Part shown: piece after piece, positions 1,221 to 46,095 of the stretch
Numbering within the stretch: position 1 is the stretch's first letter
How the letters are laid out: the number at the start of each line of letters is the position of its first letter
Origin: a virus
Length of the DNA: 46,542 nt
IMG/VR virus record: IMGVR_UViG_3300045988_082870
Coordinates: 1 to 46,542 of that record
Strand: one strand, 5' to 3'
The notes under the pieces: generated by a model
What the model was told of the DNA's origin: nothing
The model's database searches: none
What the model saw: the letters and a program-made list of their open reading frames with translations, nothing else
Translations under genes and position numbers: made by a program

Positions 1221-1260
1221 TTGTTTATGCCGAAGCTTGCGCCCCGGCTGGTTAATTATT
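1221..1260 (-). promoter_or_regulatory. Intergenic GNRA-tetraloop hairpin, copy 1 of a 4-member family
   Basis: The minus-strand RNA reads AAUUAACCA GCCGGGGC-GCAA-GCUUCGGC AUAAAC (hairpin 1229..1248). Two G-U pairs form only on the minus strand. No U-tract follows. Confidence 0.6.
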
Positions 1261-1487: not shown

Positions 1488-1503
1488 CCGGGCAACCGCC
1501 CGG
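1488..1503 (-). promoter_or_regulatory. Leader-type hairpin, copy A (no adjacent promoter)
   Basis: The minus strand reads GACCGGGCGGUUGCCCGGAAAC: a 5-bp CCGGG/CCCGG stem and a CGGUUG loop. The same motif occurs at 1785, 39380 and 46024. It lies between the stop at 1511 and the ATG at 1467. Confidence 0.55.
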
Positions 1504-1510
1504 TCGGGTT

Positions 1511-1784: not shown

Positions 1785-1854
1785 CCGGGTAACTGCCCGG
1801 TCAGCTTTTTTATTTATCTGCTGCAAAGTTAAAGAAATATTTTAAAAGCACAAA
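1785..1854 (-). promoter_or_regulatory. Early promoter B plus conserved leader hairpin
   Basis: On the minus strand: TTTG (1851..1854), a 19-nt spacer, then TAACTTTG (1824..1831). The leader hairpin GACCGGGCAGUUACCCGGAAAC follows at 1785..1800. This matches the Bacteroidota -33/-7 consensus and is nearly identical to cassettes C and D. Confidence 0.75.
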
Positions 1855-3789: not shown

Positions 3790-3836
3790 TCGGTCGGTTA
3801 ATTACTCCGTCCTATCCACTTTGCAAAGGTATAAAA

Positions 3837-5377: not shown

Positions 5378-5384
5378 AATTTAT

Positions 5385-5417: not shown

Positions 5418-5425
5418 AGTTAAAC

Positions 5426-5860
5426 TTATGATGCAGATGAAGCCGCACCAATAGATATTGTTACGGAATCGTTGATAACATATCCGTATGCCTTGCCGTT
5501 CTTGACACAGGCAATTCCTTGGTCTGTTCCGACCGAAGTTATTACCGGCGTAGATGTCGGCAACGTTGTGCGTCCTTGGAATGCTACCTTAAAGTTTTCC
5601 GTATAAACAAGCGGTTGAGCCTTGCCGCAACATTTGTTGCCGGACGGCACAAGTATTTCTACACGTGCTGTTATTGGCACAAATACGGTGCTGTTGTTCA
5701 GCGTAGGCGTGCCTACGACATAAGTAACTGTTGCGCTCGGCTGGTTGTTATTCAATACGCAAAACGGCTCGCAAAGCCTTTCTTTGAAAGTGAGCATTAC
5801 AGATAGCTGGTTTGCTACCGGGGCGGCTGATAAGCCGACAGGATTTTGATAAACTGCCAT
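5426..5860 (-). CDS. Hypothetical beta-rich, Cys-containing protein (144 aa)
   Basis: ORF track. Second gene of a two-gene unit bounded by the promoter at 6814 and the terminator at 5385..5417. Rich in T/V/N/S, with the Cys motifs CEPFC and KCCGK. Confidence 0.6.
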   Translation of the reverse strand: MAVYQNPVGLSAAPVANQLSVMLTFKERLCEPFCVLNNNQPSATVTYVVGTPTLNNSTVFVPITARVEILVPSGNKCCGKAQPLVYTENFKVAFQGRTTLPTSTPVITSVGTDQGIACVKNGKAYGYVINDSVTISIGAASSAS

Positions 5861-22297: not shown

Positions 22298-22666
22298 TTA
22301 GATATTTTCTTTTGGATTCCACAATACTTCTACCTTGGTATAGCCGAGCATTTCGGCGATTGATAGGTCTTTTTCGTTTTTCTTGGCCGTTAGCTTGTTG
22401 TACTCCTTTTCAGTGTACATCTGTACAAACGGCTTTGATATCTTTTTGCCTGTGCGCTGGTCGTAATGCTCTTTTTCCAGCCTTACATGGTAAAAGCCTT
22501 TTTCGTCGTCCCTTGGAACGTACTTTTCAGCCGTTTCATCCTGCGTTTCCGCCGGTGTTTCCGTTGTTGCTTCCTGCTGGCTGCTGGTTTGCTCCGCTGC
22601 CTGCTCCTGCTCCATTTGTTCCGCTATCTTGTCGAGCGGCGATGTTTGACTGTTGTTCTTTGGCAT
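22298..22666 (-). CDS. Hypothetical acidic protein (122 aa); start uncertain
   Basis: ORF track. The first 131 nt overlap the 3' end of the portal ORF in another frame. The C-terminal 80 aa look like a normal globular sequence. Confidence 0.45.
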   Translation of the reverse strand: MPKNNSQTSPLDKIAEQMEQEQAAEQTSSQQEATTETPAETQDETAEKYVPRDDEKGFYHVRLEKEHYDQRTGKKISKPFVQMYTEKEYNKLTAKKNEKDLSIAEMLGYTKVEVLWNPKENI

Positions 22667-24347
22667 AATCTTTAAATTTATTGGTTATTACTTCTATTTT
22701 TTTGTTAAGAGTTAAAACACTTCCAAATTCCAATATGTTAATATTTTCCCTCTCAAATCTGTCGACAAAGTTAGCAAAATTTATCTTAATTATCAACATA
22801 ATAGGGTCAATAAGTTGCTTGCTGTATAAATTTTGCACTTCGTTCAATGTCAAATGCCTGTACGGCTCTAATTGTTTCAGCAAATACATCCTTTGCATCT
22901 GTTGTGGGTTGTTGCGGTTTTCCGTAGCGATAATTTGGTCTGAAATCATATCTAACCGGGCTTCGCTTGCGCCGCTTTTCTTGGCTGCGTCATAAATGGC
23001 CTGCAAATCCTCAACGCTATACAAATAGAACTCTGTGCCCCAATTAATGTTTGAGCTGACGAATGCTTCGCCGTACCTTAACCGGCATATCGTATCATCA
23101 ACGAACTTCTGCGCTTCCTCAAAGTTTTTCTTAATGCTGGTTAGGACATTTTTCTTATCCTCGAAGTTGGCAGTTACTTGTCGTTCGTTAATGCTTTCTT
23201 TCTGCTGCACCTCTCCGCCTGTGCCGGTTACTTTCTCGTATATCTCATTTGCCATTCTCTTTTCTTCCTCGACATTATAATCAAGGCTATTGCGGTCTAC
23301 CGTTGTAATTGTTACAGGGTCTTTTAAGTCTGCCGTACCGTCCTTTGGTATCGGGACTTCAATAAATGAGCCTGCCCCGGCGATGTGCTTTGTGCCGCAA
23401 ACCGGGCAACGCTCGACCATACCGTCACGTGTTATCTTATATTCGCCATTTGCGTTGCGCAAAAATCCGCCGTCACAATAATCGCCGGTTTCGTTGTTCC
23501 TAAAACTGCAATCAGCGGCGTAGGCTGAATAAATCGGGTAAGGTGCATATAAATCAAGATGTCTTTTTGATACCCGGAAAAATAAGAGCCAATCCAAATT
23601 GCCTAACTGCGGCGATAATGGACTTTTCTTTATATCCGGCTGCTGCTGTGATAGCGGCGTTGTCCAAAAGAATTTGGCCGGACAATAGCCTAAATTGTGC
23701 TGTACTTCGGTTATCATGTTTCCGACTTTCCCTTTGTCGTCCACTTCAAACACACGCATAAATTCATCGTCAAATGCGGCAATCTTTTTTTCCGGCTGCT
23801 TGAATATTATCCACTCCAAATCATCCCCTTTAGACTTGTAGTCAATAACGTTTTCAATGCCCAAGAAATAGAAATAAGGAGCTGGCCGCTCCGTAACTTG
23901 CTGCGCCGGCATATCTACCACCATAACGCTGTTTATTGCTGTCTGTAATGTCGCCCACCCCTTAGACTTCCATACATTCGGCTCATGCATTATATCGTGG
24001 CGGTAATATTCCCAATCGTCATTTAGCGTGCTGTCTGTAAATTGGTAAGTGACGGCAGGGTTTCTGCCGTCAAATACTCTTTCCAACTCTTGATAAATCT
24101 TAGTAGTTAATTCGATGTTCTGCGTAGGAAATTTGAACAAAGTTAGGAAAATACGAAACTTATCCTTTGGTATTAATTTCTTCACCCATTCGGCAAATTC
24201 TGTGAATGGGGCGGAAATATCCATAGGGTTGATATAGCTTTCTGTGTGAAAGCGCAACCGGGCTTCGTGTGATATGGCCTTTTGAATTAATTGTTTATTC
24301 TTCGGCCGTAGCACTATTTCCTTGACTTGCTCTCTTTGTAATGCCAT
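22536..24347 (-). CDS. Portal protein (putative)
   Basis: 603 aa, located between the terminase and scaffold/capsid genes. The C-terminal tail is low-complexity and rich in G/N/A/S. Confidence 0.65.
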   Translation of the reverse strand: MALQREQVKEIVLRPKNKQLIQKAISHEARLRFHTESYINPMDISAPFTEFAEWVKKLIPKDKFRIFLTLFKFPTQNIELTTKIYQELERVFDGRNPAVTYQFTDSTLNDDWEYYRHDIMHEPNVWKSKGWATLQTAINSVMVVDMPAQQVTERPAPYFYFLGIENVIDYKSKGDDLEWIIFKQPEKKIAAFDDEFMRVFEVDDKGKVGNMITEVQHNLGYCPAKFFWTTPLSQQQPDIKKSPLSPQLGNLDWLLFFRVSKRHLDLYAPYPIYSAYAADCSFRNNETGDYCDGGFLRNANGEYKITRDGMVERCPVCGTKHIAGAGSFIEVPIPKDGTADLKDPVTITTVDRNSLDYNVEEEKRMANEIYEKVTGTGGEVQQKESINERQVTANFEDKKNVLTSIKKNFEEAQKFVDDTICRLRYGEAFVSSNINWGTEFYLYSVEDLQAIYDAAKKSGASEARLDMISDQIIATENRNNPQQMQRMYLLKQLEPYRHLTLNEVQNLYSKQLIDPIMLIIKINFANFVDRFERENINILEFGSVLTLNKKIEVITNKFKDYAKEQQSNIAARQDSGTNGAGAGSGANQQPAGSNNGNTGGNAG

Positions 24348-25183: not shown

Positions 25184-25249
25184 CGTGGCTTTGGTTTACC
25201 CTTTGCCCAAAACCACGACAAATATACTTTATTTTTTCAATATCTCAAA
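25184..25249 (-). promoter_or_regulatory. Consensus promoter downstream of TerL, with an adjacent 11-bp hairpin
   Basis: On the minus strand: TTTG (25246..25249), a 19-nt spacer, then TATATTTG (25219..25226). It is immediately followed by the hairpin CGUGGUUUUGG-(12 nt)-CCAAAGCCACG (25184..25217). Confidence 0.65.
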
Positions 25250-25255: not shown

Positions 25256-27787
25256 CTAATTTTTTTGCACAATTCCATGCGCCTGTGTAAGTATTTCTCT
25301 TTCAACAATGCCTGTTAGGCAGTCGCTGCAATCATCGTGAGCATTAGCCTTAAAGTTTCGCAAAAACTTTGTTACGGCCTCATAGAACGCCGGATAACGT
25401 GTTTCCCAATCGAACGGCATTAGAATGTGATATGTTACTAAACCGGCGTTCGTAATAATTCTGCTCTCCTTGTTGTCCGTTTGTGTAAACGAATAGATGC
25501 GTGCTGTTGTCTTTGGCTCTATTATCTTTGCAAAGCTCCTGCCGCCGTTGTTGCTCTCTATATATGCGTATTGCGTTGCTTCCCGGTTTAACATCATCGG
25601 CACAGCCTGTGTTGTCTTTTCTATTGGCTCGTCAGTGTAAACTATATCAGTAACGGCAAGGAACATGACGGGGCGGCCATGCTCATCCTTGGCATCCCGT
25701 GATATTATCTTGTTATAACATATTGAACAAAGATAGTCCGAGCCTGTATCTGCGCAATCTGTATAATTACCCTTAGCCACAAGGCTGCCCCAATCTTGCC
25801 ACCTAACATAAGTACGGAAAGGCTCGTACAAAAGGCCAACAGCACTGCCTGGCTGTCCTTGGTACAAGCAATCAAATTGCACCTTATCGAGCTTACGTTT
25901 CGACATCAGGCTTTCAAGGCTGTGTTTGCTCGGCCACAAGGCTTGCCCAAATTCTCGTGGGTCAAAGTCTGTTTTCTCGGTTGTCTTAATCGCTTCAAAG
26001 TTTATGCGTACCCATGCCCCACTTGGTATGTTCTGTAAATCTTCTTTTCGCTCAATGTCGATTACTCGCTCCGTCTTTTCTATCCGCCCCACCAAATCAT
26101 CGCTGTGCCAGCGTGTGAATACGATAAGCTCTTGGCTATCGTTGTGTAGTCGTGTCTTGACTACTGTCGTGTACCATTTCCACGCCGCTTCCCTAATTAC
26201 CGGGCTGTTAGCTTCTTGATAGTCCTTATAAACATCGTCCATTATCATTATGTCTACCGGCTTACCTGTCAGTGGGCCACCACGGCCGACAACTCGCAAA
26301 CTGCCGGTATGGCCGACACACTCTATCACATCGCTGTTACGCTGGTAAACGCTGGCAAATGTAACCTTATTACTACGTGATAAGTAAGTTTGCGGAAATA
26401 GCTCGTTGTATTCCGGGGTGTCGATAATTTTCTGAACATCTCGGTTGAAATCTCGTGCAAAGGTTGTTGAATAGCTGCCTATTGCCACTTTTTTATCCGG
26501 GTTGTTGCCTAAAACAAATGCCGGCAGCTTTCGGCTTGAGCCCTCGGAATTATGCGTTGGGATAAACGTATCGCCAACAAGATAAACGCCGCCCTCAACT
26601 TGGATACAATTCCCATAACCCAAATTATCCCTCTTTTCAATGGCAACAATCGCCCTTTTTTTATTCTTGGATAACGTTGTAATCTTTTTCCTTGGTACGG
26701 CGGTGGGGAATGCCATTGTAGGGTTGAAACAAAGTTGATAAACGACTTTACGGCCTTTTATTCCGCTGGTGCTCGTTTTAGGTACAAAGCTGCATACCAC
26801 TACCGATTGGCCGAGGGAACGGAGCATAAACGCCGCATCGTCAATTATCCTCTTGCTCGTGTTAGATATTGTCACACGTCCGTTCTTTTGGTAAACATAT
26901 CCGTCTGTATCTATAAGGCCAGCAATAACTTGCGCCCTTACCTCTACGGAATTGTATTTATATACATCGGGAATATGCTTGTTATTTATCAAGCCATATT
27001 CCGCCAACTTTATTTGCTTGCCAAAATAATAATATTCAACGCCTGTGTCTTTCTGCGTCCAAAAGCTGGTGGCCTGGTATGGCATTCGCTCTGTTATCTG
27101 ATAGTCCCCATTGCCTATCGTCATTTGCGGTGCGCTACTTTTGCCATCGCCTAACCATGCGCCCAAAGTATATGGGTCTATCTTTACGGTCTTATATGGG
27201 AAATTCACACAAACATTTGCATCAACTTGGTATTTGTATCGACTGCCCCTCTTGCCGCTTCCTCTGTATATGTCGCCACTCGCATAAATCACTTTTGTTT
27301 CCAACGTTTCTTCTTTATGCTTCGACCTATTGAATACCACCCATTCATGATTGCCGTGGCATTCTATACTTGCGCCATCGGAAAATTTTACAACGTATTC
27401 GGAACGTGTTTTTGGCGAAGTCCATAACACTTTTACTGGCTGGCCGTTACGGCCAAAGACATAATCGCCCACAGACAAATCCCCATGCCTTTTTATTCCG
27501 TTCGGCGTGACTACTTCTTGGCTGTCCGATATTTGTTTGCCGTGTTGCGGCGGCATAGTTACTATTAGTTTTTTTATCTTTCCTTTGGCGAAAAGGTTAA
27601 GTACGGTATAATATACCCGGTGGAATGGTTGTATGTCCAAATTCGGCTGCATATAGCGTGCAAAGGCCAACAGGTCATGCCGGGCTGCAACCTTGACAAT
27701 CTCCCGAGGGTTTTCCTGCAAATACTTAACGGCTGATAATAGCTCCTGCCGCTCCTGTTGTTGTTCGTTATTTGCTAAATCTGTCAT
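25256..27787 (-). CDS. terL: Terminase large subunit, interrupted by an intein (precursor 843 aa; spliced about 514 aa)
   Basis: The Walker A loop is split as MPPQHGK / intein / SEGSS. Walker B is VDIMIMDD. The C-terminal nuclease-type acidic motifs are DCADTGSDY and NAHDDCSD. The gene follows TerS. Confidence 0.85.
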   Translation of the reverse strand: MTDLANNEQQQERQELLSAVKYLQENPREIVKVAARHDLLAFARYMQPNLDIQPFHRVYYTVLNLFAKGKIKKLIVTMPPQHGKQISDSQEVVTPNGIKRHGDLSVGDYVFGRNGQPVKVLWTSPKTRSEYVVKFSDGASIECHGNHEWVVFNRSKHKEETLETKVIYASGDIYRGSGKRGSRYKYQVDANVCVNFPYKTVKIDPYTLGAWLGDGKSSAPQMTIGNGDYQITERMPYQATSFWTQKDTGVEYYYFGKQIKLAEYGLINNKHIPDVYKYNSVEVRAQVIAGLIDTDGYVYQKNGRVTISNTSKRIIDDAAFMLRSLGQSVVVCSFVPKTSTSGIKGRKVVYQLCFNPTMAFPTAVPRKKITTLSKNKKRAIVAIEKRDNLGYGNCIQVEGGVYLVGDTFIPTHNSEGSSRKLPAFVLGNNPDKKVAIGSYSTTFARDFNRDVQKIIDTPEYNELFPQTYLSRSNKVTFASVYQRNSDVIECVGHTGSLRVVGRGGPLTGKPVDIMIMDDVYKDYQEANSPVIREAAWKWYTTVVKTRLHNDSQELIVFTRWHSDDLVGRIEKTERVIDIERKEDLQNIPSGAWVRINFEAIKTTEKTDFDPREFGQALWPSKHSLESLMSKRKLDKVQFDCLYQGQPGSAVGLLYEPFRTYVRWQDWGSLVAKGNYTDCADTGSDYLCSICYNKIISRDAKDEHGRPVMFLAVTDIVYTDEPIEKTTQAVPMMLNREATQYAYIESNNGGRSFAKIIEPKTTARIYSFTQTDNKESRIITNAGLVTYHILMPFDWETRYPAFYEAVTKFLRNFKANAHDDCSDCLTGIVEREILTQAHGIVQKN
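26549..27535 (-). mobile_element. Intein with LAGLIDADG homing endonuclease domain (TerL residues 85-413)
   Basis: A block A-like start QISDSQEVVTPNG. Block B reads HGNHEW. The LAGLIDADG motifs are LGAWLGDGKS and IAGLIDTDGYV. Block F reads YGNCIQVEGGVYLVGD. The insert ends IPTHN and is followed by Ser. Confidence 0.8.
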
Positions 27788-28855: not shown

Positions 28856-29275
28856 TTAAGATGTTTTACTTTCTGATGCTGTTTCCTGTGCCCGGCTTTT
28901 TTCCTGTGCTTCGGTCTGCTGTTCTTCTTCGCTTTCTTGCATTAATGGTGTTGTTTGGCTCGGATAAATTCCGTTGTCTGCGTCATTGATTAGTATATCG
29001 TAGTAATCGGGTAAAACCGACAGGAAATCATATAGCTTATCCTCGTTAGTGCTTATAATGCTTATGGCCGTGCAATTTTCCTGTGGAAATGTCGTTGCGG
29101 TCAGCGTCATTACATCTGTAATGTAGCACATTGAAAATATTCCATTGTCTGTTGCGTCTGTATAACTTAATATCTTAACGCCTATATCTCCGAAAACCTT
29201 TTTAAACTTGGTTTTAAGCTGGCTTACGCTATTTATCCAGCCCGAATAATTCAATATCTTGGCTATCATATTCAA
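28856..29275 (-). CDS. Hypothetical protein with acidic C-terminus (139 aa)
   Basis: ORF track. It overlaps the methyltransferase 3' end by 47 nt. Confidence 0.5.
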   Translation of the reverse strand: MNMIAKILNYSGWINSVSQLKTKFKKVFGDIGVKILSYTDATDNGIFSMCYITDVMTLTATTFPQENCTAISIISTNEDKLYDFLSVLPDYYDILINDADNGIYPSQTTPLMQESEEEQQTEAQEKSRAQETASESKTS

Positions 29276-30746
29276 TCTTTTTAAATTGTTCCCTAATTTT
29301 GCTTTGCTCTCCCTTGAAAAACACTAAAACGTTTTTATTTACCGAAACGACCTTGCGGCTGTCAATGGCTCTGTTTATTTGGAAATTATGCTCACCTTTG
29401 AAAAACACTAAAACGTTTTGGTGATTTTTGGCTATCTTGCGCATTTCCATATACTTCCCGGCTCGCAGTGCTGTGCTCGCTCCGCTTTCTATTAAGATAA
29501 GTTCGTTATAAAGCCCTGCGCCGTGTTTCTTGAAAATACGCTTTATATCGCCTACGAAATCGTAGTAAAAGCCGGTTTTCTTGTTTCTTACATCGCCTAC
29601 TACAACAACTGCAAATCTATTTTCACGTAAACATTTCAATGCGCCGGCAAAACCGTTTTCCAAAATATTCAAAAATGCTTCGTAGGTTGCGGCGTTGCTT
29701 GCGTCATTAGGTAAATCGCTGTAATGTTCCAAATCGAAATATGGTGGGCAACTCATAACCAAATCCACGCTATTTTCTTCGAAATGGTTTGCTACGTTCT
29801 GCCCATCGTCAAGAATATAATTTACTCGTAAGTTAGGAAAACGCTGTAATATCTTGTTGTTCTCCTGTACCTGTTCCGGGCGTATTTCTATACCTGTAAA
29901 ATCGTTTCCTAAATATCCGAAAACTAAGCCTTTGTAAACATCGCCGGCGAAAGGGTCTATTATCTTACATCCGGGATAACCAAACCAACGTACTATTATT
30001 TCGGATAATACAGGGTCAAATATACTCGTTCCGCTGCCCAATGCCTGCGCTTCGACTTTTCGTTTTTCTTCTTCTGAAACAAATCGCTCTAAATATTCGG
30101 CAAAGGATATTCCAAGCTCTTTGCGTCTTAATTTGCTGCGCTCGTAAATCGTCTTATACTTTAATTCCGGGCTTTTCATGTTAGTGTCTTGGCGGCTCTC
30201 TCCATTCGCTCCAATAATCGCTTTCCATTGCTTTTTGCGCTGCTGCCAATATCCTTGCCGTGTGTCTAATATACTAAACGGCGGTATAACGAATTTATCC
30301 AATAGCGAAACATGGTTACTTGCCGTTTTCTTGACCTTTTGTTCTTCGAGCTTGGTTAAGCCCCAATCAACCAAATTCATACTGTCGAACTTATCCTCAA
30401 GTATGTCGAAATCCCAATCTCCGCCGAGGGCGTTTGCCGTGATGTTTGCCTTTTCTCGCTGTTTTTCATCCCAGCGCACCTGTCGGTAATTTAATTTTTG
30501 GCCGTCAAATATGACATATCCCCATGCAACTGTGCCCTGCTTATTCGGTGTGTCGTATTTTTCTACGATGTCGATTTGGCACTTGTTTATGTCAATAACC
30601 CTGCTTCGCTGGTTGCCGGAAATAATTTCATCGCTATTTAAATCGTGTACTATTCCCGACAAGTCGCCAAGTTCTTCAATGTTAGCTTTTAATTTAGCTA
30701 ATTGTTTTTCGCTTATTTTTCGTGGATTTTTATTGTACTGCTTCAT
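29229..30746 (-). CDS. ParB-like nuclease domain fused to an N6-adenine/N4-cytosine DNA methyltransferase
   Basis: The N-terminus (KLKANIEELGDLSGIVHDLNSDEIISGNQR) is ParB/Srx-like. The SAM motif I is IIDPFAGD and the catalytic motif IV is SCPPY. The C-terminal motif NVLVFFKGE occurs twice. Confidence 0.8.
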   Translation of the reverse strand: MKQYNKNPRKISEKQLAKLKANIEELGDLSGIVHDLNSDEIISGNQRSRVIDINKCQIDIVEKYDTPNKQGTVAWGYVIFDGQKLNYRQVRWDEKQREKANITANALGGDWDFDILEDKFDSMNLVDWGLTKLEEQKVKKTASNHVSLLDKFVIPPFSILDTRQGYWQQRKKQWKAIIGANGESRQDTNMKSPELKYKTIYERSKLRRKELGISFAEYLERFVSEEEKRKVEAQALGSGTSIFDPVLSEIIVRWFGYPGCKIIDPFAGDVYKGLVFGYLGNDFTGIEIRPEQVQENNKILQRFPNLRVNYILDDGQNVANHFEENSVDLVMSCPPYFDLEHYSDLPNDASNAATYEAFLNILENGFAGALKCLRENRFAVVVVGDVRNKKTGFYYDFVGDIKRIFKKHGAGLYNELILIESGASTALRAGKYMEMRKIAKNHQNVLVFFKGEHNFQINRAIDSRKVVSVNKNVLVFFKGEQSKIREQFKKIEYDSQDIELFGLDK

Positions 30747-30771: not shown

Positions 30772-30802
30772 CAAAGTTACATCTTTTTTTGGAAAAAGCA
30801 AA
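30772..30802 (-). promoter_or_regulatory. Consensus promoter for the methyltransferase / packaging genes
   Basis: On the minus strand: TTTG (30799..30802), a 19-nt spacer, then TAACTTTG (30772..30779). It lies 25 nt upstream of the ATG at 30746. Confidence 0.65.
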
Positions 30803-30830: not shown

Positions 30831-31298
30831 TTACTTAACGATTGGATTTTTCAGACTTCGAGGATATGGCATTATAACGCCTTTTGTATATATGAGGTTG
30901 TAAATACCCAACTGTCCTTTTACAGGATATTCTATAGCTCTGCGGATGTCACGCAAAAACCACCCAAAACCGCCCTTTTCTTTCGCTGTGGCGGCTTCTG
31001 TTTCTGCCAGCTTAGTGTTTCCCCACTCTTCCGGCGTAAGCTCCGACAGCGGCTTGCAATCGTATAATTCGGCAAATGCAAGCGTGCAGCCGTAGCCGGG
31101 TATGCCGTCATTCCGTCCGTCTTTGCTGGCGCATATAAGGAGCTGCCCCCGGTACTTGGTCGGCTTAGTCCTCACTTCGATTGTTTTCTCTCCGCTGGCT
31201 ATCATGCCGGCGTATGGCTGTTTAACCGACAAGGCCTTGAACTTGTCGTGAAATATCGGGTCGTATTCTTCTGCCTTGTACTGCATTATTCTTCCCAA
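30831..31298 (-). CDS. ASCH (PUA-like) domain protein
   Basis: The segment ALSVKQPYAGMIASGEKTIEVRTKPTKYRGQLLICASK is a typical ASCH N-terminal beta-barrel signature. Confidence 0.7.
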   Translation of the reverse strand: MGRIMQYKAEEYDPIFHDKFKALSVKQPYAGMIASGEKTIEVRTKPTKYRGQLLICASKDGRNDGIPGYGCTLAFAELYDCKPLSELTPEEWGNTKLAETEAATAKEKGGFGWFLRDIRRAIEYPVKGQLGIYNLIYTKGVIMPYPRSLKNPIVK

Positions 31299-36198: not shown

Positions 36199-36680
36199 TT
36201 CTCTTTGTCTTTTATGTTGTAATCACTTTTAAGTTCTGCGATTATTTTCTGATTTTTCTCGTATATCCTCATGGCCTTGCGGTTTCCATTTTCCCATTGG
36301 TTGTGATGTTCCAAACAAAGGATATTTATGTTTCTCGGGTCGTTGGCCATTTCCGGGTTGCCGCCACGTGTCATTATATGGCTGCAAAATGTAGCCGAGT
36401 AATATTGTAACGGCTTTCCGCACTCCTCGCAAAAATGCGGTTTGTTTTGCCAAATCCAACGGAAAAACTTCGCATCCGCCTTGCGTATGTCTTTGCCCCG
36501 GCTGCCAAAATAACGCTCCTGCAATTCTTTGCGTAACTTAATATCAACTTTGAAATATCTATTAGGCAGGAGAGGCTGATATCCTCTCCTGTTTACAAAG
36601 TCATATTCGGCCTTAGTCGTCAGTATTATCTGTTCCATTTTCGCTCCATTCTTCTTTGCCCATAGGCTCGCCAAATTCAT
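36195..36680 (-). CDS. HNH / NinG(Rap)-like endonuclease
   Basis: The segment CEECGKPL...FCSHIMTRGGNPEMANDPRNINILCLEHHNQWENG shows a CxxC zinc knuckle plus His-Asn-His-type core. The real start is probably Met15 (36638). Confidence 0.55.
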   Translation of the reverse strand: MNLASLWAKKNGAKMEQIILTTKAEYDFVNRRGYQPLLPNRYFKVDIKLRKELQERYFGSRGKDIRKADAKFFRWIWQNKPHFCEECGKPLQYYSATFCSHIMTRGGNPEMANDPRNINILCLEHHNQWENGNRKAMRIYEKNQKIIAELKSDYNIKDKEK

Positions 36681-37218
36681 CGAAGATTTCTAACTGCGCC
36701 TTTTTGTTTTTAAACAGGAACAAATAAACTTCACGCTCTATCTGTCCGACTATTTCTTCCATATCTATCTCAAAGCCATACAGGGCGTCTGAAAACTTCA
36801 TACGGTGAGTGTTTATCGCCATTTTCTGATTGTTTGGCGATATTATCGTGCCGGTTAGTACTACTCCGACATTATCATCCTTGCCGGATAGGCTCAAGCC
36901 GATTACCTTAATGCTGGCCAATATCGTTTCTGTTAGATTTTTGGCTAATGCAATTTGCGCCTTTGTGGCCTTGAATTTCTCGTCTTTTACAGTTCGCTCA
37001 AACATATCTAAGTAAAACACTTGTGCGATGAATGGCTTTAGTTTGTCGAACAACTGCTGCAAGTCCGGGTGTATATCCTTGCTTGATGCGAGGTGATAAT
37101 TTTCCCTGTAAATCTCTTCGCCGCACTTTTCTTCAACCTCGAAGTGGACATCAAGTCCGCCGCCGTTGATAATTTTTACTTTGCTTAGATAAAAAGCACT
37201 TTCATTTGGTGTTTTCAT
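36613..37218 (-). CDS. Hypothetical protein with acidic C-terminal tail (201 aa)
   Basis: ORF track. It lies two genes downstream of the SMC-like ATPase and is preceded by hairpin copy 4. Confidence 0.55.
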   Translation of the reverse strand: MKTPNESAFYLSKVKIINGGGLDVHFEVEEKCGEEIYRENYHLASSKDIHPDLQQLFDKLKPFIAQVFYLDMFERTVKDEKFKATKAQIALAKNLTETILASIKVIGLSLSGKDDNVGVVLTGTIISPNNQKMAINTHRMKFSDALYGFEIDMEEIVGQIEREVYLFLFKNKKAQLEIFDEFGEPMGKEEWSENGTDNTDD

Positions 37219-37225: not shown

Positions 37226-37270
37226 TCATTTATGCCCTCGCTCGCCCTGCCGAGCTTGGGCGGTTATTAT
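37226..37270 (-). promoter_or_regulatory. Intergenic GC-rich hairpin, divergent 4th member of the GNRA-hairpin family
   Basis: It has the same flanks (AUAAUAACC ... AUAAAU) around GCCC-AA-GCUCG-GCAGGG-CGAGC-GA-GGGC (37234..37261). Confidence 0.45.
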
Positions 37271-37707
37271 ATCGTAGCAGGGTCGTCAATTATTACATAA
37301 CAATTTTCAGCCATGAGCTGTTTTATTGTTTCAATATGTTCTATAAGTTCGGAATTGTCCAAGTCTTTAACTTCTCGCAAGACGCTCATATATTGGCCGC
37401 TGTCCGGGTCTGCCGTCTGCAAGTGCATTATGGGCGACATCTCACGCAGCCACCGCTCTGTCTGCTCGTCCGTCTTTCTGTCGCCGCTCTCCCACAAAGC
37501 ATGCCTGCACCTCGGTACAACATAATTGAAATAATAGCCTTTCAATGCTTCTGATGTCTTTGGAGCATACACCCGGAATGTAGCTATTATCCGGGTGTTT
37601 GGCCAATTCTTGCAAAAGTCTTTCAGTTCTTCCATATACATCGAGAGCCGGCCGTCATTCGTTATACGGCCGCAAATCTCAATCGTGTGCTTCTTCATAC
37701 TTTTCAA
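37267..37707 (-). CDS. Hypothetical protein (146 aa)
   Basis: ORF track. It overlaps the ATPase 3' end by 29 nt. Confidence 0.55.
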   Translation of the reverse strand: MKSMKKHTIEICGRITNDGRLSMYMEELKDFCKNWPNTRIIATFRVYAPKTSEALKGYYFNYVVPRCRHALWESGDRKTDEQTERWLREMSPIMHLQTADPDSGQYMSVLREVKDLDNSELIEHIETIKQLMAENCYVIIDDPATI

Positions 37708-39121
37708 CTCTTAATTCATCCTGCTCTCTTACTACTTGCTCAACAAACCCCTGGAAACCGTTATCTTTTGCGAATTTTACAAGGGCTTCGAGCTTCTTCT
37801 TTCCCAAACTTTCGCCCCGGGCGATGCGGAAAACCTTAACTTTGGGGTTTTTGGCAATTATAAGTTTCGCCGCAACTTCCATTATTTGGCTATCGCTTAC
37901 CCTGCCGGCAACAAATGGTATGCCGTTAAGCTCCAAGCCATCCTCGGTAAATGTAAGGCCGTTTATTGGTATCTCCGATTTGTTGATATAATTCTCTCGC
38001 TTGTCGGCAAGCTCTTTCAGCTTCTTCTCGTGTCCTGCGACCTTGGCCGCTGCTGCGTTCTTGTCGTTCTCGGCCTTAGCGTAGTCGGCAACCTTTCGGT
38101 GCATCTCGTTGTGGTGCTTGGCGTTTGCGATAAGTTCTGTTACATCCTGCGGCTTGTTGTTCTCATAGTCCTGTAACCACTTATTGCAGTTATTTCGCCG
38201 GTTTATTGCATCGGCTTCTTTCGCCTTAACATCGTCTATTAGTGCCCTGTAATCGGCTATTGTCTTAGCCTTTTCGTTGTCAATATTATTTATCTTTTCA
38301 TTGTATTTGTTTGTTAGCTCCTCAATAGCCCTGTCAAGCTCTGATTTGGCGTTTGCCTTTTCTTGCTCTGCGGTTAATTCTGCGTCTTTTATTTGCTGCT
38401 GATAGTCCTCGATTAATGCCGGCGTGTCGGCAATGGTCTTTTCACGTTCTTCAAGTAACTGCCTTACTGATTTAGCTTTCTCGTCTAACTTCACGGCCTG
38501 CGCCTGCTGTTGCATTAATGCTTCCATGTCTATTTCTTCGGCATATTCTTTTATATCGGCCGGCGTCACTTCCTGTTGTATCTTTGCAAATACGCCGGTG
38601 TACATCTTTAATTCGGCGTTATCCGTCTTGCGCTGTTCCTTGATTTGCGATACCTGTGCGTCTATATCGGCAATGGCCTTTTGCGTTTCCTCGCTTAGTA
38701 AAGATTTTACGATTTGCACCTGTTTGCGTCTGCCCTCGGCCGTTTCGCTCCACGCCACAAACTCGTTAGCGTCAAAGTCTTGATAGCCGAAAATATCCTG
38801 TAACGCTGTTATTCGGTCAGACCTCAGCCCGGTGTCCTTGCTGGTTATTGTTATCGTGCCCCGGGGATTTGCCTTTGTCATAGATAACTTCACTTCATAT
38901 TCTTTGCCGTCATCTCCAACAATTATCTTTGCATATCCTTTGTCCTCGCCGTTTCGTAACACTTCGTCACGGCTGCCGGTTAGCAAAACCATTATTGACT
39001 TTAGCAGGGTGCTTTTGCCAAGCTCGTTTTCGCCGGTAACCAAATAAACGTTGCCGTCAAAATCACTCGTAAATTCCTTAATTGCTTGGAAATTCTTTAA
39101 TTCAATTCTTTTAATATACAT
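37679..39121 (-). CDS. SMC/Rad50/RecF-like ABC ATPase with a long coiled-coil insert
   Basis: The N-terminus is IKRIELKNFQAI...VYLVTGENELGKSTLL (Walker A). A coiled coil of about 250 aa follows. The C-terminal part has a signature-like RVSDSQ and a Walker B-like GFQGFVEQV. Confidence 0.75.
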   Translation of the reverse strand: MYIKRIELKNFQAIKEFTSDFDGNVYLVTGENELGKSTLLKSIMVLLTGSRDEVLRNGEDKGYAKIIVGDDGKEYEVKLSMTKANPRGTITITSKDTGLRSDRITALQDIFGYQDFDANEFVAWSETAEGRRKQVQIVKSLLSEETQKAIADIDAQVSQIKEQRKTDNAELKMYTGVFAKIQQEVTPADIKEYAEEIDMEALMQQQAQAVKLDEKAKSVRQLLEEREKTIADTPALIEDYQQQIKDAELTAEQEKANAKSELDRAIEELTNKYNEKINNIDNEKAKTIADYRALIDDVKAKEADAINRRNNCNKWLQDYENNKPQDVTELIANAKHHNEMHRKVADYAKAENDKNAAAAKVAGHEKKLKELADKRENYINKSEIPINGLTFTEDGLELNGIPFVAGRVSDSQIMEVAAKLIIAKNPKVKVFRIARGESLGKKKLEALVKFAKDNGFQGFVEQVVREQDELRVEKYEEAHD

Positions 39122-39128
39122 ATCTCTC

Positions 39129-39166
39129 GGTTTTATGCCGGGGTTGCCCCCGGCTGGTTATTTATT
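39129..39166 (-). promoter_or_regulatory. Intergenic GNRA-tetraloop hairpin, copy 2
   Basis: The minus-strand RNA reads AAUAACCA GCCGGGG-GCAA-CCCCGGC AUAAAACC (hairpin 39137..39154). It lies between the stop at 39170 and the ATG at 39121. Confidence 0.6.
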
Positions 39167-39169
39167 ATC

Positions 39170-39358
39170 TTAATAATTTTCAAAAATATCCATTGCAGTA
39201 CAAAGACTTGGCATTTCTTCTTCTTGAATTATTTTTCCACGTTTTTCCTCTACAAAAAACATTCCTTGGTTTATGCCGGTTTCGTCATATCTTTCTTCAA
39301 TCCTAATATTTGTGTTGTTTTTTGAAATTTTACATGCTACAATTTTTATACGTTTCAT
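39170..39358 (-). CDS. Hypothetical protein (62 aa), first gene after early promoter C
   Basis: ORF track; AT-rich; bracketed by the leader hairpin and the GNRA hairpin. Confidence 0.5.
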   Translation of the reverse strand: MKRIKIVACKISKNNTNIRIEERYDETGINQGMFFVEEKRGKIIQEEEMPSLCTAMDIFENY

Positions 39359-39379
39359 ATTTCTTATTTTTAACAGTTT

Positions 39380-39452
39380 CCGGGTAACCGCCCGGTCGGC
39401 TTTTATTTCTTATTTCTGATGCAAAGATAAAGAAAAATTTTAAATACACAAA
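39380..39452 (-). promoter_or_regulatory. Early promoter C plus conserved leader hairpin
   Basis: On the minus strand: TTTG (39449..39452), a 19-nt spacer, then TATCTTTG (39422..39429). The leader hairpin GACCGGGCGGUUACCCGGAAAC follows at 39380..39395. Confidence 0.75.
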
Positions 39453-39470
39453 ATATTTTCCGTATTTTTT

Positions 39471-39713
39471 TTAGAAAAAATATTGCTGCCGGTCGAATAT
39501 CCGTTCTAATATCGCATCGACATCATGCTCCAGCTTTTTACTTGTTTGCAAAACGTTCTTATCTCGTGTTGCGAAATATCTGCGCTGCGCATGGCGCATA
39601 TCTTTTACCAACGATGCAAACTTATCTAATGTTATTTCGCCTAAATTTTGCGCACAACCGTTTGTTTCCATTTCTTCGTGTACTTTATTGTATTTGTAAT
39701 TTAGCGTCCGCAT
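39471..39713 (-). CDS. Hypothetical protein (80 aa)
   Basis: ORF track; last gene of the unit that begins at promoter D. Confidence 0.55.
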   Translation of the reverse strand: MRTLNYKYNKVHEEMETNGCAQNLGEITLDKFASLVKDMRHAQRRYFATRDKNVLQTSKKLEHDVDAILERIFDRQQYFF

Positions 39714-42925: not shown

Positions 42926-43642
42926 TTATTTTTTTGTCGTCAGCATTTTAATTGGCTGCTTCGCTTCATTTATCTTGTTAATATTAGCTTCGCTCTCATT
43001 TGGAATGATACTTACAACCGGGTATCGGCTTTTATCTCCGGGCTTTTGGCTCTTGGCAAATTGTACGTTAAGGTCAAATATAATTCCTTTGACAAATCCG
43101 TTACTTTCCAAAATTGCATCAAATGTATCTCTTATGTTGGGTATGGTGCTTGCTGTGCCTTTTGTGGCAAACTGCCAAACGCCGGCCACGCCCCGGACGC
43201 AAGGTATAATGAAGTTTAGCGTTAAAATGATATTCCAGCCCTCGCCTGTGCGCTGGTATTGGCTGTTAGGGTAACGGCGTTCAATGTCTTTCATTAAATT
43301 AGGGTAATCACTAATTTTCAGCTCTTGGTACTCCTTACCGTTCCAACACTTGTAAGTTTCGCCATCACCTGTTGCCAACAAACGCCCCTCATTATCCCGG
43401 TACTCGTAACGTTCGCAACATACTTGCTCTGCGCTGTCTGACGGAAATACTATTTGTATCGTCTGCGGCTTCTCGCCATAAGCCGCCGTAAACAGTGCAG
43501 CGTACTTGCCTGTCGGTATGAAGTAATCTACGCTACGAGGATAGCCTTTTGCGTCCTTATATCCTATCTTTATGTTACCGACCCGGGGCAAAACCAAATG
43601 GTTTCGCTCCGCTGCCGGTCTATTTATTATTCTGCCTTTCAT
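42926..43642 (-). CDS. Hypothetical protein in the position of a single-strand annealing partner of the exonuclease
   Basis: 238 aa. Its ATG overlaps the exonuclease stop (ATGA). No ATPase motif and no family recognised; the function is inferred from gene order only. Confidence 0.4.
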   Translation of the reverse strand: MKGRIINRPAAERNHLVLPRVGNIKIGYKDAKGYPRSVDYFIPTGKYAALFTAAYGEKPQTIQIVFPSDSAEQVCCERYEYRDNEGRLLATGDGETYKCWNGKEYQELKISDYPNLMKDIERRYPNSQYQRTGEGWNIILTLNFIIPCVRGVAGVWQFATKGTASTIPNIRDTFDAILESNGFVKGIIFDLNVQFAKSQKPGDKSRYPVVSIIPNESEANINKINEAKQPIKMLTTKK

Positions 43643-45225
43643 AAATCTAAATCATTATCAAGTAATGCACTTACGTTATTTTTCGCCTTTTTGGCCGTTT
43701 CTTTTGCCTTGGTGGCTTTTTCGACCTTTTTCGGTTCAGTTGTCCGCTCCTTTGCTTTCGGCTCGTCAGACGGCTTCATTTTGCTGTCTTTTCGTGCATA
43801 CATACGAGGAACGCCTTTTTGCGCTTCTGATGTCCTTTGGTTTCTTGTGCCATAATTAATGTTATCCCGATGTGTTATATATTCCAAGTTGGAAATAGCA
43901 TTATTTGCCTTGTTTTCGTCTTTGTGATTTATCTCCATATTTTCGGGCGGCACGCCTAAAAATGCCAAAGCAACAAGGACGTGAACACGCTTTGTAACTC
44001 CGCTTACACAAACGTGATAATATCCTGTTTTTTCTAATTGTGGCTTCAATATATAAGGCTTTTCCCTTGTATGTCCGTACTCATCAATCAAGCTCCTTAT
44101 TTCTCCATTCTCGCTGGCTTGATACTTACCATCATACCCAGGTATATCTTTCCAAATGCAATCGGTCGTATCGTCTTGCATTTTCTTCTCCATATTCCGC
44201 CTTTTTACAAGCTCCGAAAGACTTATTACGCAAATGTTATTTTCTGCGTGATAATCGTCAAAATTTATAACTCCCGAACAAGATATAACAGTATTATCTC
44301 TTTTCGCATCCTCTATTTGAGCAAGTTCGATTAAATAAGGTAATTTAGCCGCATTCTTGCTATTGGTTTGGTCTTTGAAATTATACGTGGGTGTATCTCC
44401 ATTCCATAATTTTGGACTCCAATTAAATACACGCTCAACAGGGTATTGCTCAAAATTCATGTTCCACATTTTCATGTATGCATGGAGTTGTATTTCGTGT
44501 TCCTCGAAAAAGCCTTTGCGTCCCGATTTGAAGTCGATTATTGCTCTTATTCGGCGTTGCCGCTTGCTTTCCTTTGGTTGCCCTGCCTTTACGCCTGTTT
44601 TATAAACATCACCGAAAAAGCCCTTTTCCTCAACGGTTATTTCGGCTACGAGGTCGATTGCCCCTGCATATCCATCTTCGGGGTTTGTCAACACCAACTC
44701 GATTGCTAACGGCTTTAAATCTACATCGTGTGCAAATTGTGCAAATGCCAATATATCTCTTTTTATATCGTCAGAATAATCTATAAAATCAATGGGCAAT
44801 TTCTCGCTCTCAATATATGATTTCAATTTATCTCTTATCTCATTTAGGTCAAAAGTTCGTTCTATTAAATACCTTGCTATCTGTGAATGCAAGAACGTTC
44901 CATACGCCGCACGCTCGGCTGCGTAACGTCTGCTTTCGTCATACCCCATATCTGCTATCCATTTAACAAGCTGCGGCGATGTCGGCAGTGTCTGTTTAAT
45001 CAGCGTTGTAACGCTTACATAGAATTGCGGCTCTCCATTTTCGTCAAATGTGTAATAATAGCGGTGGCCGCTGCTGTCTAATCTGTAAACCGGCTCGGGC
45101 TGCTCCTGTAATGCGTCAGCGTCAAAAAATTCTGCCTTAATTTCTTCGGATGTCATGCCCGGTGCAATTTCAAATGCCGGCTTCGTTGTTAATTCTTCCT
45201 GTGTGATTTGTTCTTGATTTTCCAT
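43639..45225 (-). CDS. PD-(D/E)XK (RecB/Cas4/YqaJ-type) exonuclease fused in frame to a NUMOD4-HNH endonuclease module and a basic tail
   Basis: The nuclease core motifs are GTFLHSQI, AGAIDLVAEI, IIDFKSG and QLHAY. Residues 356-462 are IWKDIPGYDGKYQASENGEIRS...HVLVALAF...INHKDENKANNAISNLEY. A Lys-rich tail ends LLDNDLDL. Confidence 0.75.
   Translation of the reverse strand: MENQEQITQEELTTKPAFEIAPGMTSEEIKAEFFDADALQEQPEPVYRLDSSGHRYYYTFDENGEPQFYVSVTTLIKQTLPTSPQLVKWIADMGYDESRRYAAERAAYGTFLHSQIARYLIERTFDLNEIRDKLKSYIESEKLPIDFIDYSDDIKRDILAFAQFAHDVDLKPLAIELVLTNPEDGYAGAIDLVAEITVEEKGFFGDVYKTGVKAGQPKESKRQRRIRAIIDFKSGRKGFFEEHEIQLHAYMKMWNMNFEQYPVERVFNWSPKLWNGDTPTYNFKDQTNSKNAAKLPYLIELAQIEDAKRDNTVISCSGVINFDDYHAENNICVISLSELVKRRNMEKKMQDDTTDCIWKDIPGYDGKYQASENGEIRSLIDEYGHTREKPYILKPQLEKTGYYHVCVSGVTKRVHVLVALAFLGVPPENMEINHKDENKANNAISNLEYITHRDNINYGTRNQRTSEAQKGVPRMYARKDSKMKPSDEPKAKERTTEPKKVEKATKAKETAKKAKNNVSALLDNDLDL
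43840..44160 (-). mobile_element. NUMOD4-HNH homing-endonuclease-like module embedded in the exonuclease ORF
   Basis: It is a paralogue of the free-standing HNH gene 2971..3726, with the same NUMOD4 and HNH_3-type motifs in the same order. This segment is locally more AT-rich than the nuclease-domain part of the ORF. Confidence 0.7.
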
Positions 45226-45397: not shown

Positions 45398-45631
45398 TTA
45401 CTTGTTACTTAGTCCAAACAAAAAATCGGCTGATACGCCTGTTTCTTTACATATTGTTACAACCCATTCGGGGTTTACTTTTTTCGTCACGCCGCTGGCA
45501 AGGTTTGTCATGTTTACCGTCTGCGCTTCCGGCCTGCTGTTTGGCCATATTTTCTTTGCCAAATCTTTTTTGTAAATCTTTTTTCCCCGGCTCTCGGCGA
45601 GGGCGATTGCTTCGTTAATTTTCAGTTCCAT
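45398..45631 (-). CDS. Cro/XRE-like HTH regulator (77 aa)
   Basis: Its size, position as second gene of the first early unit, and the segment ...VVTICKETGVSADFLFGL are typical of the HTH_3 family. Confidence 0.6.
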   Translation of the reverse strand: MELKINEAIALAESRGKKIYKKDLAKKIWPNSRPEAQTVNMTNLASGVTKKVNPEWVVTICKETGVSADFLFGLSNK

Positions 45632-45639: not shown

Positions 45640-45680
45640 TGTTTTATGCCAGGGCTTGCGCCCCGGCTGGTTATTATTTA
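45640..45680 (-). promoter_or_regulatory. Intergenic GNRA-tetraloop hairpin, copy 3
   Basis: The minus-strand RNA reads AAUAACCA GCCGGGGC-GCAA-GCCCUGGC AUAAAACAA (hairpin 45648..45667). One G-U pair forms only on the minus strand. Confidence 0.6.
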
Positions 45681-46003
45681 TCAATTTCTATCTGTATGCA
45701 AAATGCAGCCTTTGAACATACTCGGCCGTCATTATACTCTCTGTGTACATCAATGCAGTATAATATATTTGAATAAACCTTCATATACTTTTTTATCATT
45801 GCTATAAGTTCGTCAAGAACTGCGCCTGTCATGAAGTCCCGGTCTATACTTACAACTTTCAATATATGCCATTTGCCGGCTGTTACTTTCAAAACTCTAT
45901 ATGACGGCTTATCTCTATATTTAAAGATGCTGGTTATATCATCTATTTTTTTATGAATGTTATGAGTAATCTTTTCTAAATTTGTGTGATTAATCGTTTT
46001 CAT
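45674..46003 (-). CDS. Hypothetical protein (109 aa), first gene after early promoter D
   Basis: ORF track; bracketed by the leader hairpin and the GNRA hairpin. Confidence 0.55.
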   Translation of the reverse strand: MKTINHTNLEKITHNIHKKIDDITSIFKYRDKPSYRVLKVTAGKWHILKVVSIDRDFMTGAVLDELIAMIKKYMKVYSNILYCIDVHREYNDGRVCSKAAFCIQIEIDK

Positions 46004-46023: not shown

Positions 46024-46095
46024 CCGGGTAACCGCCCGGTCGGCTGTTGTTCTTAATTATGCTGCAAAGATAAAAAATATTTTTTAAAGCACAAA
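46024..46095 (-). promoter_or_regulatory. Early promoter D plus conserved leader hairpin
   Basis: On the minus strand: TTTG (46092..46095), a 19-nt spacer, then TATCTTTG (46065..46072). The leader hairpin GACCGGGCGGUUACCCGGGAAC follows at 46024..46039. Confidence 0.75.

Follow-up and report, generated by a model that had tools for sequence, protein, structure and literature searches.

A phage-restricted hairpin repeated between stop and start codons in the operons of a group of Bacteroidota siphoviruses

A group of Bacteroidota siphoviruses carries, between the cistrons of its operons, a short GC-rich hairpin (hairpin B) that folds on the sense strand, is conserved among the phages and restricted to them, and has a regular place in the order stop codon, hairpin, A-rich box, ATG, with flanks that are largely generic. 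We describe it from the window, by which we mean the whole stretch of 46,542 nt that was analysed (IMG/VR record IMGVR_UViG_3300045988_082870), and from related phage loci. Hairpin B is a case of a familiar kind, the repeated intercistronic stem-loops of phage and bacterial operons, and the evidence points at present to no new mechanism. A literature search returned no description of such hairpins in Bacteroides phages, and the family appears to be undescribed so far. The reading that we favour, tentatively, is that hairpin B may act after transcription, as an intercistronic barrier to RNA decay or as a processing determinant. The phage clade is abundant in human-gut viromes, with hundreds of contigs of ~45 kb and isolates on Parabacteroides, Bacteroides and Alistipes. 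The phylum Bacteroidota is not known to have Shine-Dalgarno (SD)-based initiation, Hfq or 5'-3' exonucleases. As a conserved element that is simple and open to test, hairpin B offers a way into the post-transcriptional control of gut Bacteroidota phages.

Results

All long ORFs of the window lie on the minus strand. The encoded proteins match siphovirus tape measure, portal, terminase and capsid families, the portal being 47–56% identical to the portals of Parabacteroides, Croceibacter, Bacteroides, Alistipes and Elizabethkingia phages, and these matches identify the window, at the level of protein similarity, as a ~46.5 kb Bacteroidota siphovirus of the B40-8/PDS1-like group; the collection of isolate phages held no close DNA relative. 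The Bacteroidetes-type promoter TTTG-N17-21-TAnnTTTG occurs nine times on the coding strand of the window and twice on the opposite strand. Searching the window against the Rfam covariance models gave no match at gathering score, a permissive Rfam search of 39100–39480 gave chance-level matches only (E >3), and a search of the window for tRNA and tmRNA genes found none.

A sequence-only reading of this DNA had described four intergenic minus-strand hairpins as one family, and the sequences do read as described: the pattern TAACC-N0-3-GCC-N8-30-GGCATAAA has exactly four matches in the window, all on the minus (coding) strand, and none in 100 shuffles, the chance expectation being none (Table 1). 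Three copies close with a GCAA loop, and the fourth has the longer, bipartite stem that was ascribed to it (GCCC-AA-GCUCG-GCAGGG-CGAGC-GA-GGGC), in which an outer GCCC/GGGC and an inner GCUCG/CGAGC helix (4+5 bp) are separated by an AA/GA internal loop. The statement that the copies differ by changes between G-C and G-U pairs holds for those changes, but copy 2 is also one whole base pair short. Each of the four sense-strand folds is a single hairpin (z = -3.2 to -4.5), more stable than its antisense counterpart by 1.8–6.4 kcal/mol. The tail 3' of all four stems is AUAAA(A/C), with no U tract. An intrinsic terminator is thereby rejected, as it had been before; canonical hairpin-plus-U terminators occur elsewhere in the genome.

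Several further candidates were tried and rejected. In a two-block promoter reading, with TAACC as -35 and CATAAA as -10, the block spacing is 16–27 nt and tracks stem length while the pairing is kept. An antisense terminator flagged by a scan on the plus strand (hairpin plus UGGUUAUUUA) would have A.C mismatches in place of the G.U pairs, and the antisense folds are weaker. A hairpin-less site at 22673–22692 with the flanks UAACCA and AUAAA, considered as an 'empty site' and evidence of insertion, scores at chance level (E about 0.9). Helix 45 of 16S rRNA is likewise a UAACC-preceded, GNRA-capped GC hairpin of roughly 8 bp, a resemblance to which we give no weight.

Table 1 Hairpins and associated genes in the window
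Feature	Position	Strand	Sequence or description	Upstream context	Downstream context	RNA folding, sense; antisense (kcal/mol)	Bits
Hairpin B copy 1	1224..1254 (stem-loop 1229-1248)	minus	GCCGGGGC-GCAA-GCUUCGGC, two G.U pairs	39 nt past stop of ORF 1288-1467	47 nt before ATG of ORF 960-1181	-14.8; -8.4	44.7
Hairpin B copy 2	39132..39160 (stem-loop 39137-39154)	minus	GCCGGGG-GCAA-CCCCGGC, with UAACCA 5' and AUAAA 3' of the stem-loop	15 nt past stop of ORF 39170-39358	15 nt before ATG (39121)	-17.4 (z = -3.3); -15.6	53.7
Hairpin B copy 3	45643..45673 (stem-loop 45648-45667)	minus	GCCGGGGC-GCAA-GCCCUGGC, one G.U pair	directly preceded by UAA-UAA tandem stops of ORF 45674-46003; stop-to-stem 6 nt	16 nt before ATG of ORF 45398-45631	-18.4; -13.2	48.4
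Hairpin B copy 4	37229..37266 (stem 37234-37261)	minus	divergent, bipartite	5 nt past stop of ORF 37267-37707	15 nt before ATG of ORF 36613-37218	-18.4; -16.6	18
Hairpin A, unit 1 5' UTR	46024..46041	minus		23 nt after promoter 46065-46095	20 nt before ATG of ORF 45674-46003		
Hairpin A, unit 2 5' UTR	39380..39397	minus		promoter 39422-39452	21 nt before ATG of ORF 39170-39358		
Hairpin A, unit 3 5' UTR	1785..1802	minus		promoter 1824-1854	22 nt before ATG of ORF 1511-1762		
Hairpin A, intercistronic	1488..1505	minus	GACCGGGCGGUUGCCCGG	between ORFs 1511-1762 and 1288-1467	20 nt before ATG		
SbcC/RecF-like ATPase gene	37679-39121	minus	gene next downstream of copy 2				
ASCH-domain protein	30831-31298		putative RNA-binding (protein scan)				

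In the protein collection the ATPase gene adjacent to copy 2 has some 1,945 homologues, and we examined 80 viral loci around this gene, two closer relatives and four isolate genomes. A covariance model built from 12 copies, a check that the sequence-only reading had proposed with its four, revealed both conservation and covariation in related phages. The model gave 142 and 116 further matches in related loci, nearly all co-oriented with the genes, and places hairpin B in >200 loci of related phages, among which is the isolate Parabacteroides phage PDS1; a syntenic copy precedes the ATPase gene in >70 related loci. In the model-fitted alignment 98.4% of cells are standard pairs and five of the seven pairs show double changes, values of pairing and covariation that none of 500 shuffles reached, and slid controls collapse. 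The site before the ATPase gene, for instance, has GCCGGGG/CCCCGGC in the window and GCCUGG/CCAGGC in locus L017, a compensatory difference, and in L118 and L120 both stems of copy 4 show covariation, the outer stem having U-A for C-G and the inner stem C-G for U-A. By inspection, the 43 distinct cores contain nine G.U/U.G pairs against one A.C (GCCAGGGG…CCCCGGC) plus a few other mismatches; a script tally gave nine G.U/U.G pairs and one C.A, in a doubtful member.

These comparisons support the pairing of hairpin B, and the sequences indicate that it folds on sense-strand RNA, because of the G.U bias and the asymmetry between sense and antisense folding energies. A role in sense-strand DNA is conceivable as well, G.T being tolerated in single-stranded DNA too. 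Two claims that had been made from the four copies alone, that the pairing favours the minus-strand (sense) RNA and that the copies form a conserved cis-acting RNA element, are thus borne out by the weaker antisense folds, the G.U bias and the comparative covariation.

The stem usually consists of 7–8 bp, all G/C, in the form GCCGGGG/CCCCGGC, and ranges from 6 to 9 bp (6 in L017), with 3 bp left in L120. Stem and base-flanking residues are almost invariant at unrelated junctions and in phages whose ATPases are about 52% identical. The same stem is capped by GCAA, GAAA, GGAA, GUAA, GAGA, GAAC, GCAG, UUCG, UUCGU, UUCGC, CGCAAU or A-GCAA-U, and occasionally by longer loops; GNRA loops are the most frequent, and loops differ even at orthologous junctions. 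The loop subtype tracks the downstream gene, with GCAA or GAAA before the ATPase gene, UUCG-type loops before a gene of 123–125 aa and CGCAAU before one of 67–71 aa. Since unusually stable tetraloops are enriched on an all-G/C stem, the alignment points to selection for stability and not for a loop sequence read by a protein. The conservation of the stem beyond the needs of stability hints at sequence-specific recognition or frequent copying.

A strict motif scan of viral contigs found at least 120 stretches, mostly in contigs of ~44–46 kb. The same motif is present in 6 of 185,579 species genomes, five of the six being phage-like contigs in MAGs, four of them of 45.6–46.6 kb. From the strict motif and the covariance matches, hairpin B is therefore widespread in the phage clade and absent from host chromosomes. 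A collection scan with loose flanks (TAACCAGCC-N10-16-GGCATAAA) gave 23 matches, mostly chance and hairpin-less, the real ones lying only in L007, L010 and L017. Four copies are present in PDS1 (2735–2775, 3149–3191, 10835–10871 and 44266–44305), of which one immediately precedes the holin gene at the end of the late operon, and L083 has several in series within a single operon. In Elizabethkingia phage TCUEAP2 the core CCGGGG-GAAA-CCCCGG is retained between different flanks, Croceibacter phage P2559S has UAACC-GCCCC-N3-GGGGC-AUAA, and the genome of PD482P1 is without the family.

Hairpin B also marks the junctions of cassette exchange. At the junction between hairpin and ATPase gene, the upstream 300 nt fall into eight unrelated clusters, with no detectable similarity in 750 of 2,775 pairs, while the downstream side is 92% alike. 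Of 2,835 distinct site pairs, 2,382 have nothing in common but the hairpin; 147 pairs share the 3' side only and 51 the 5' side only, in a sampling anchored on the downstream ATPase gene. In L118, whose ATPase is 83% identical, an inserted 115-aa gene separates the hairpin from the ATPase gene; a duplicated 'AACCGAUAnAAU' leader (initiation region) flanks the insert, and the ATPase gene itself has no adjoining hairpin. In L120 (ATPase 86% identical) the hairpin is cut to GCC-GAAA-GGC, with 3 bp; its upstream gene is shared with L087 of the 52% clade, and the 3-bp remnant is common to both clades. Given such gain and loss among close relatives, hairpin B is a portable element of cassette junctions that no single junction needs.

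The upstream stop codon mostly ends 3–9 nt before the stem (83 distinct contexts), and the UAA of UAACC is the stop of the upstream ORF or an in-frame tandem stop (UAA-UAA-CC, UAG-UAA-CC). From the end of the stem to the next start codon there are 14–17 nt in 78 of 82 contexts, the exceptions being 19, 46, 47 and 50 nt; the 47-nt exception is copy 1 of the window, whose spacing is atypical. Over 303 genes, taken from five of the group's phages, the position profile has U at -15 (44%), A at -14 to -11 (53–65%) and A at -3 (60%), and it remains unchanged once hairpin-linked genes are removed. It matches the determinants A-3, A-12 and A-13 of SD-less initiation in Flavobacterium johnsoniae, where bS1 lies near nt -12 to -15 (PMC6847099). 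Because the spacer to the start is 15–17 nt, the AUAAA flank coincides with this generic A box. The shared flanks that had been assigned to the family are present, but not specific to the hairpin: to judge from these profiles they are largely generic translation signals, and the specific remainder is the CC(N) spacer with the hairpin. Canonical terminators in the same genomes also end 14–19 nt before the next ATG, and the spacing is therefore as expected from tight packing of any stable structure against a region kept unpaired. Most genes have no hairpin, and the promoters at 30772–30802, 25219–25249, 7679–7710 and 4327–4357 are hairpin-less as well; the hairpin is therefore no general requirement for initiation. 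For annotation it is a useful landmark, marking a gene end with the true next start about 15–17 nt on.

Copies 1–3 come after the first small ORF(s) of three early units and copy 4 lies two genes deeper in unit 2 (promoter 39422–39452), which agrees with the earlier placement of three copies behind the first small gene(s), about 15 nt (two copies) or about 47 nt before an ATG, and of a fourth further inside its unit. The three units start from TTTG-N19-TAnnTTTG promoters, and promoters and 5' UTRs are near-identical. Each of the three 5' UTRs holds one member of a second, related family of conserved hairpins (hairpin A, GACCGGGCRGUURCCCGG; GACCGGGCGGUUACCCGG), about 23 nt past the promoter and 20–22 nt before the ATG. 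The first small genes are bracketed by hairpins A and B, as by 39380..39397 and copy 2. The intercistronic arrangement of hairpin A recurs in L083 and PDS1. Comparison of the small early ORFs with one another gave no convincing homology, and their proteins have no Pfam match and no evident arginine-rich motif, an absent match being no proof of absence. Kissing of the hairpin A loop (CGGUUA) with the 5' flank of hairpin B (UAACCG/A) was considered and rejected: the A loops of relatives are CGGGUU, CGGGUA, CAGAUA and CGUUUU, and those relatives keep the UAACC flank unchanged.

Discussion

If hairpin B is a decay barrier or processing determinant, the phages would wedge it into the smallest untranslated gap, between the upstream stop codon and the SD-less, A-rich initiation region. 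RNase J is absent from Bacteroidota; decay there depends on RNase Y and on the RNase E/G family, the cuts falling before A (PMC10234816), and a decay barrier fits a phylum with endonuclease-driven decay and no 5'-3' exonuclease (PMC10234816). In such a scheme, once these endonucleases had cleaved the single-stranded A/U-rich spacers, hairpin B would halt exonucleases moving 3'-5' or shield the segment next to it. Transcript levels of the promoter-proximal small early genes, which lie between hairpins A and B, would then differ from those of the replication and recombination genes that follow, and the landing pad of the next gene would stay unpaired. As a by-product, ~30 nt of identical sequence could provide a crossover point for the exchange of gene cassettes.

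Some observations run against a decay barrier. The hairpin type travels more with the downstream gene (147 against 51 pairs, in the ATPase-anchored sampling), and this 3'-side bias counts against the barrier because a pure protector of upstream 3' ends is not expected to show it. Stability alone would by no means call for so conserved a stem sequence, the 5' UTRs that hold hairpin A offer nothing upstream to protect, and loss or truncation in close relatives makes the effect dispensable at a given junction.

Alternatively, the hairpin could be a translation element that marks the 5' edge of the A-rich pad, as a standby or positioning structure for 30S subunits (with bS1) unable to use an SD sequence, which we consider possible but unlikely; as a further option, it might uncouple downstream initiation from ribosomes that terminate 3–9 nt upstream. 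The end of the stem abuts the A box at about -15 to -11, near the mRNA positions -12 to -15 at which bS1 is found in Flavobacterium (PMC6847099), and its distance to the start is nearly constant. The subtype correlates with the downstream gene, and hairpin A takes an equivalent place, 18–22 nt before the ATG, in three 5' UTRs. However, ordinary terminators keep a similar distance of 14–19 nt, so that genome compaction explains the spacing, and most genes and several promoters do without a hairpin. Copy 1 of the window sits 47 nt from its ATG, and the ATPase gene manages without a hairpin in L118 and with 3 bp only in L120.

Rather less probable is that hairpin B is an operator, recognised by a sequence-specific RNA-binding protein or endoribonuclease that the phage encodes. 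This factor, which would repress or activate translation or process the RNA, would read the ACC/A flanks together with the invariant lower stem and would switch the expression of early genes. The near invariance of the GCCGGGG/CCCCGGC stem and its base-flanking residues across unrelated junctions and diverged phages argues for it, the absence of the motif from host genomes makes a host factor with host targets unlikely, and the window does encode a putative RNA-binding protein with an ASCH domain. Against this, PD482P1 lacks hairpin B and yet encodes both the ASCH protein and a conserved early 83-aa protein, and no candidate protein co-varies with the presence of the hairpin. Between PDS1, which has hairpin B, and PD482P1, which has none, four small proteins differ, and a single negative genome is too few to conclude from. 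The small early proteins are without a recognisable RNA-binding domain, loops vary freely and copies are dispensable between close relatives. We regard as doubtful the broader proposal that hairpins B and A together form a sequence-specific RNA operator or docking module, whose helix would be read by a phage factor or serve as a platform for the SD-blind Bacteroidota ribosome. If true, it would mean a private way of marking or switching the translation or processing of selected cistrons, and a structural surrogate of the SD sequence.

It is equally doubtful that hairpin B is a transcriptional signal, a U-tract-less pause site or partial terminator (attenuator) that would lower read-through into downstream genes and that an antiterminator might relieve at a later stage; this is the nut-like idea taken broadly. 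A strong GC-rich hairpin forms in nascent RNA, and in the window three copies come after the first small gene(s) of early units, as nutR/tR1 follows cro in lambda; like a lambdoid nut site, hairpin B is small and often has a GNRA loop. Unlike a nut site, it is tightly packed against the next start codon, its loop is variable and copies occur in series, as in L083, as well as before the late holin gene of PDS1. Its tail is AUAAA(A), while these phages use hairpin-plus-U terminators elsewhere, and the minus strand from 46 kb to ~30.8 kb contains no canonical terminator, which leaves nothing to antiterminate over that stretch. The 5' flank holds only UAA and CC(N), with no boxA-type element and nothing resembling CGCUCUUA, no N-like protein was recognised among the small early proteins by Pfam match or arginine-rich motif, and the hairpin is lost, displaced or shortened to 3 bp in phages with ATPases 83–86% identical. 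The boxB/nut analogy drawn in the sequence-only reading thus fails, and a lambda-style nut role is unsupported; the alternatives that it named, an RNase processing or stability determinant or an element linked to translation, stay viable.

Least probable of all is a palindromic linker acting at the DNA level, without RNA function, spread by cassette recombination (PeSL- or REP-like) or folding in single-stranded DNA: the hairpin is often the sole homology between junctions and marks mosaic breakpoints, a cassette was inserted with a duplicated initiation region in L118, a remnant is common to two clades and the phage has genes for an exonuclease, an SbcC-like ATPase and a RuvC-like resolvase, but orientation is strictly with transcription, placement is strictly outside ORFs and the initiation region, the G.U bias favours the transcribed sense strand (though sense-strand DNA tolerates G.T), stable tetraloops are enriched and the scanned proteins include no transposase or RAYT-like gene.

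Among known systems, RNase III sites of the T7 type resemble hairpin B in being conserved structures between consecutive early genes of a phage operon, and cleavage at the T7 early sites leaves a protective 3' hairpin. RNase III substrates are, however, about 20 bp or longer with an internal loop (about two helical turns), and an assignment to this type is rejected on the stem of only 6–9 bp (4+5 bp in copy 4). The rpsA leader of E. coli is an SD-independent initiation region in which hairpins are separated by A/U-rich single strands, and hairpin B likewise stands immediately 5' of an A/U-rich single strand before an SD-less start codon. It differs in that one generic hairpin is reused before many unrelated genes.

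By behaviour, we judge the closest systems to be the PeSL cassettes and the stabilisers of the REP type. PeSL (promoter-early stem-loop) cassettes of T4-type phages are composites of a terminator-like stem-loop and an early promoter, with a short shared sequence that is proposed to mediate modular shuffling (PMC2839356, PMC4122927). Hairpin B is similarly a repeated intergenic stem-loop flanking small variable early ORFs at mosaic junctions. Unlike PeSL it has no U tract and no adjacent promoter: no TTTG-N17-21-TAnnTTTG promoter adjoins any hairpin B, and the early promoters are followed by hairpin A.

Intercistronic stabilising stem-loops include the REP hairpins, of the E. coli malEFG type, and the C(UUCG)G and other tetraloop hairpins between T4 cistrons. 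Hairpin B is not a REP/RAYT repeat, because it is confined to phages (the strict motif hits in species genomes being phage-like in five of six cases); it also comes as a single hairpin rather than in REP pairs, and neither a transposase nor a RAYT gene is among the scanned window proteins. Two features set it apart from the REP and T4 stabilisers alike, the near-invariant stem and the fixed geometry of stop, hairpin, A box and ATG in phages of a host phylum that does not use SD sequences. In other respects it resembles them, being GC-rich, very stable, enriched in stable tetraloops, present at many junctions and dispensable at each. As a stable, U-tract-less, sense-strand hairpin between cistrons of one operon, hairpin B has the form of this class, and it may, like its members, shield neighbouring RNA from exonucleases and shift relative mRNA levels.

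Early promoters and hairpin A

The promoters heading the three early units are almost identical to one another, and the A/T-rich sequence upstream of them is also conserved (see table). Hairpin A, the second conserved hairpin family of the window, occurs four times against an expectation of 0, and three of the four copies lie approximately 23 nt 3' of these near-identical promoters, with start codons following 18–22 nt downstream of the hairpin copies. The promoter-like sites at 30772-30802, 25219-25249, 7679-7710 and 4327-4357 lack hairpin A. In related phages the CCGGG/CCCGG stem is inverted to CCCGG/CCGGG or replaced by CCAGA/UCUGG or CUAGG/CCUAG, and despite these stem changes the flanks GA…RAAC are unchanged.

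Coordinates of features in the window and, where named, in related viral loci
Feature	Position	Strand	Remarks
Early-unit promoters	46065-46095, 39422-39452, 1824-1854	minus	Bacteroidetes-type, TTTGTG-N-TAnCTTTGCA
Hairpin A copies	1488-1505, 1785-1802, 39380-39397, 46024-46041	minus	consensus GACCGGGCRGUURCCCGG
Terminase large subunit	25256-27787	minus	843 aa
ParB-like nuclease domain fused to N6/N4 DNA methyltransferase	29229-30746	minus	
ASCH-domain protein	30831-31298	minus	putative RNA-binding
Recombination exonuclease gene	43639-45225	minus	C-terminal NUMOD4 + HNH_3 module, residues 357-455
Purine motif examples	window 39122-39131; L083 9640-9655; L115 10872-10878		many further loci

Sequences upstream of start codons

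At window positions 22673-22692 (minus strand), immediately upstream of an ORF at 22298-22666, both flanks of the type that surrounds hairpin B, the intercistronic hairpin, abut without a hairpin between them (AGUAAUAACCA|AUAAAUUUA). With an E value of about 0.9 its score is no better than chance, so the site is probably mere stop and A-box (A-rich initiation signal) context, not an empty insertion site. In the related locus L024, a GC-rich, structured-looking non-coding stretch of approximately 190 nt (3760-3957, equivalent to L017 12611-12800) sits immediately upstream of the hairpin B copy found in front of the SbcC/RecF-like ATPase gene. It terminates in a tRNA-like T-arm/acceptor sequence (…GGUUCGAAUCCUGCCGAUACCACA); as a tRNA, the stretch scores 22 bits with the Rfam tRNA model, below threshold, and ARAGORN finds none.

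A purine motif (AGAGCG, GAGAG or CCGAGAG) recurs 3–12 nt upstream of start codons, preceding many unrelated genes in the phage group of the window, and may be a phage-specific initiation signal.

Other genes and repeats

The ASCH-domain protein is kept in all phages compared. In the terminase large subunit, Hom_end and LAGLIDADG_3 domains (residues 272-359) precede the terminase N-terminal domain (residues 418-577), a layout that suggests an intein or homing-endonuclease insertion; the relative L118 has these domains too. The exonucleases of the relatives L118 and PDS1 (a Parabacteroides phage isolate) are about 415–447 aa long, so the NUMOD4 + HNH_3 part of the window exonuclease looks like a fused homing-endonuclease-like domain. 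Upstream of its replication genes, L118 also carries tandem repeats of ~45 nt (~5300-5617; aaagttgaccaccgaggtaaagaaagtttacccagcgaggtaaac) that adjoin an assembly gap; these repeats are iteron-like and may mark a candidate origin.
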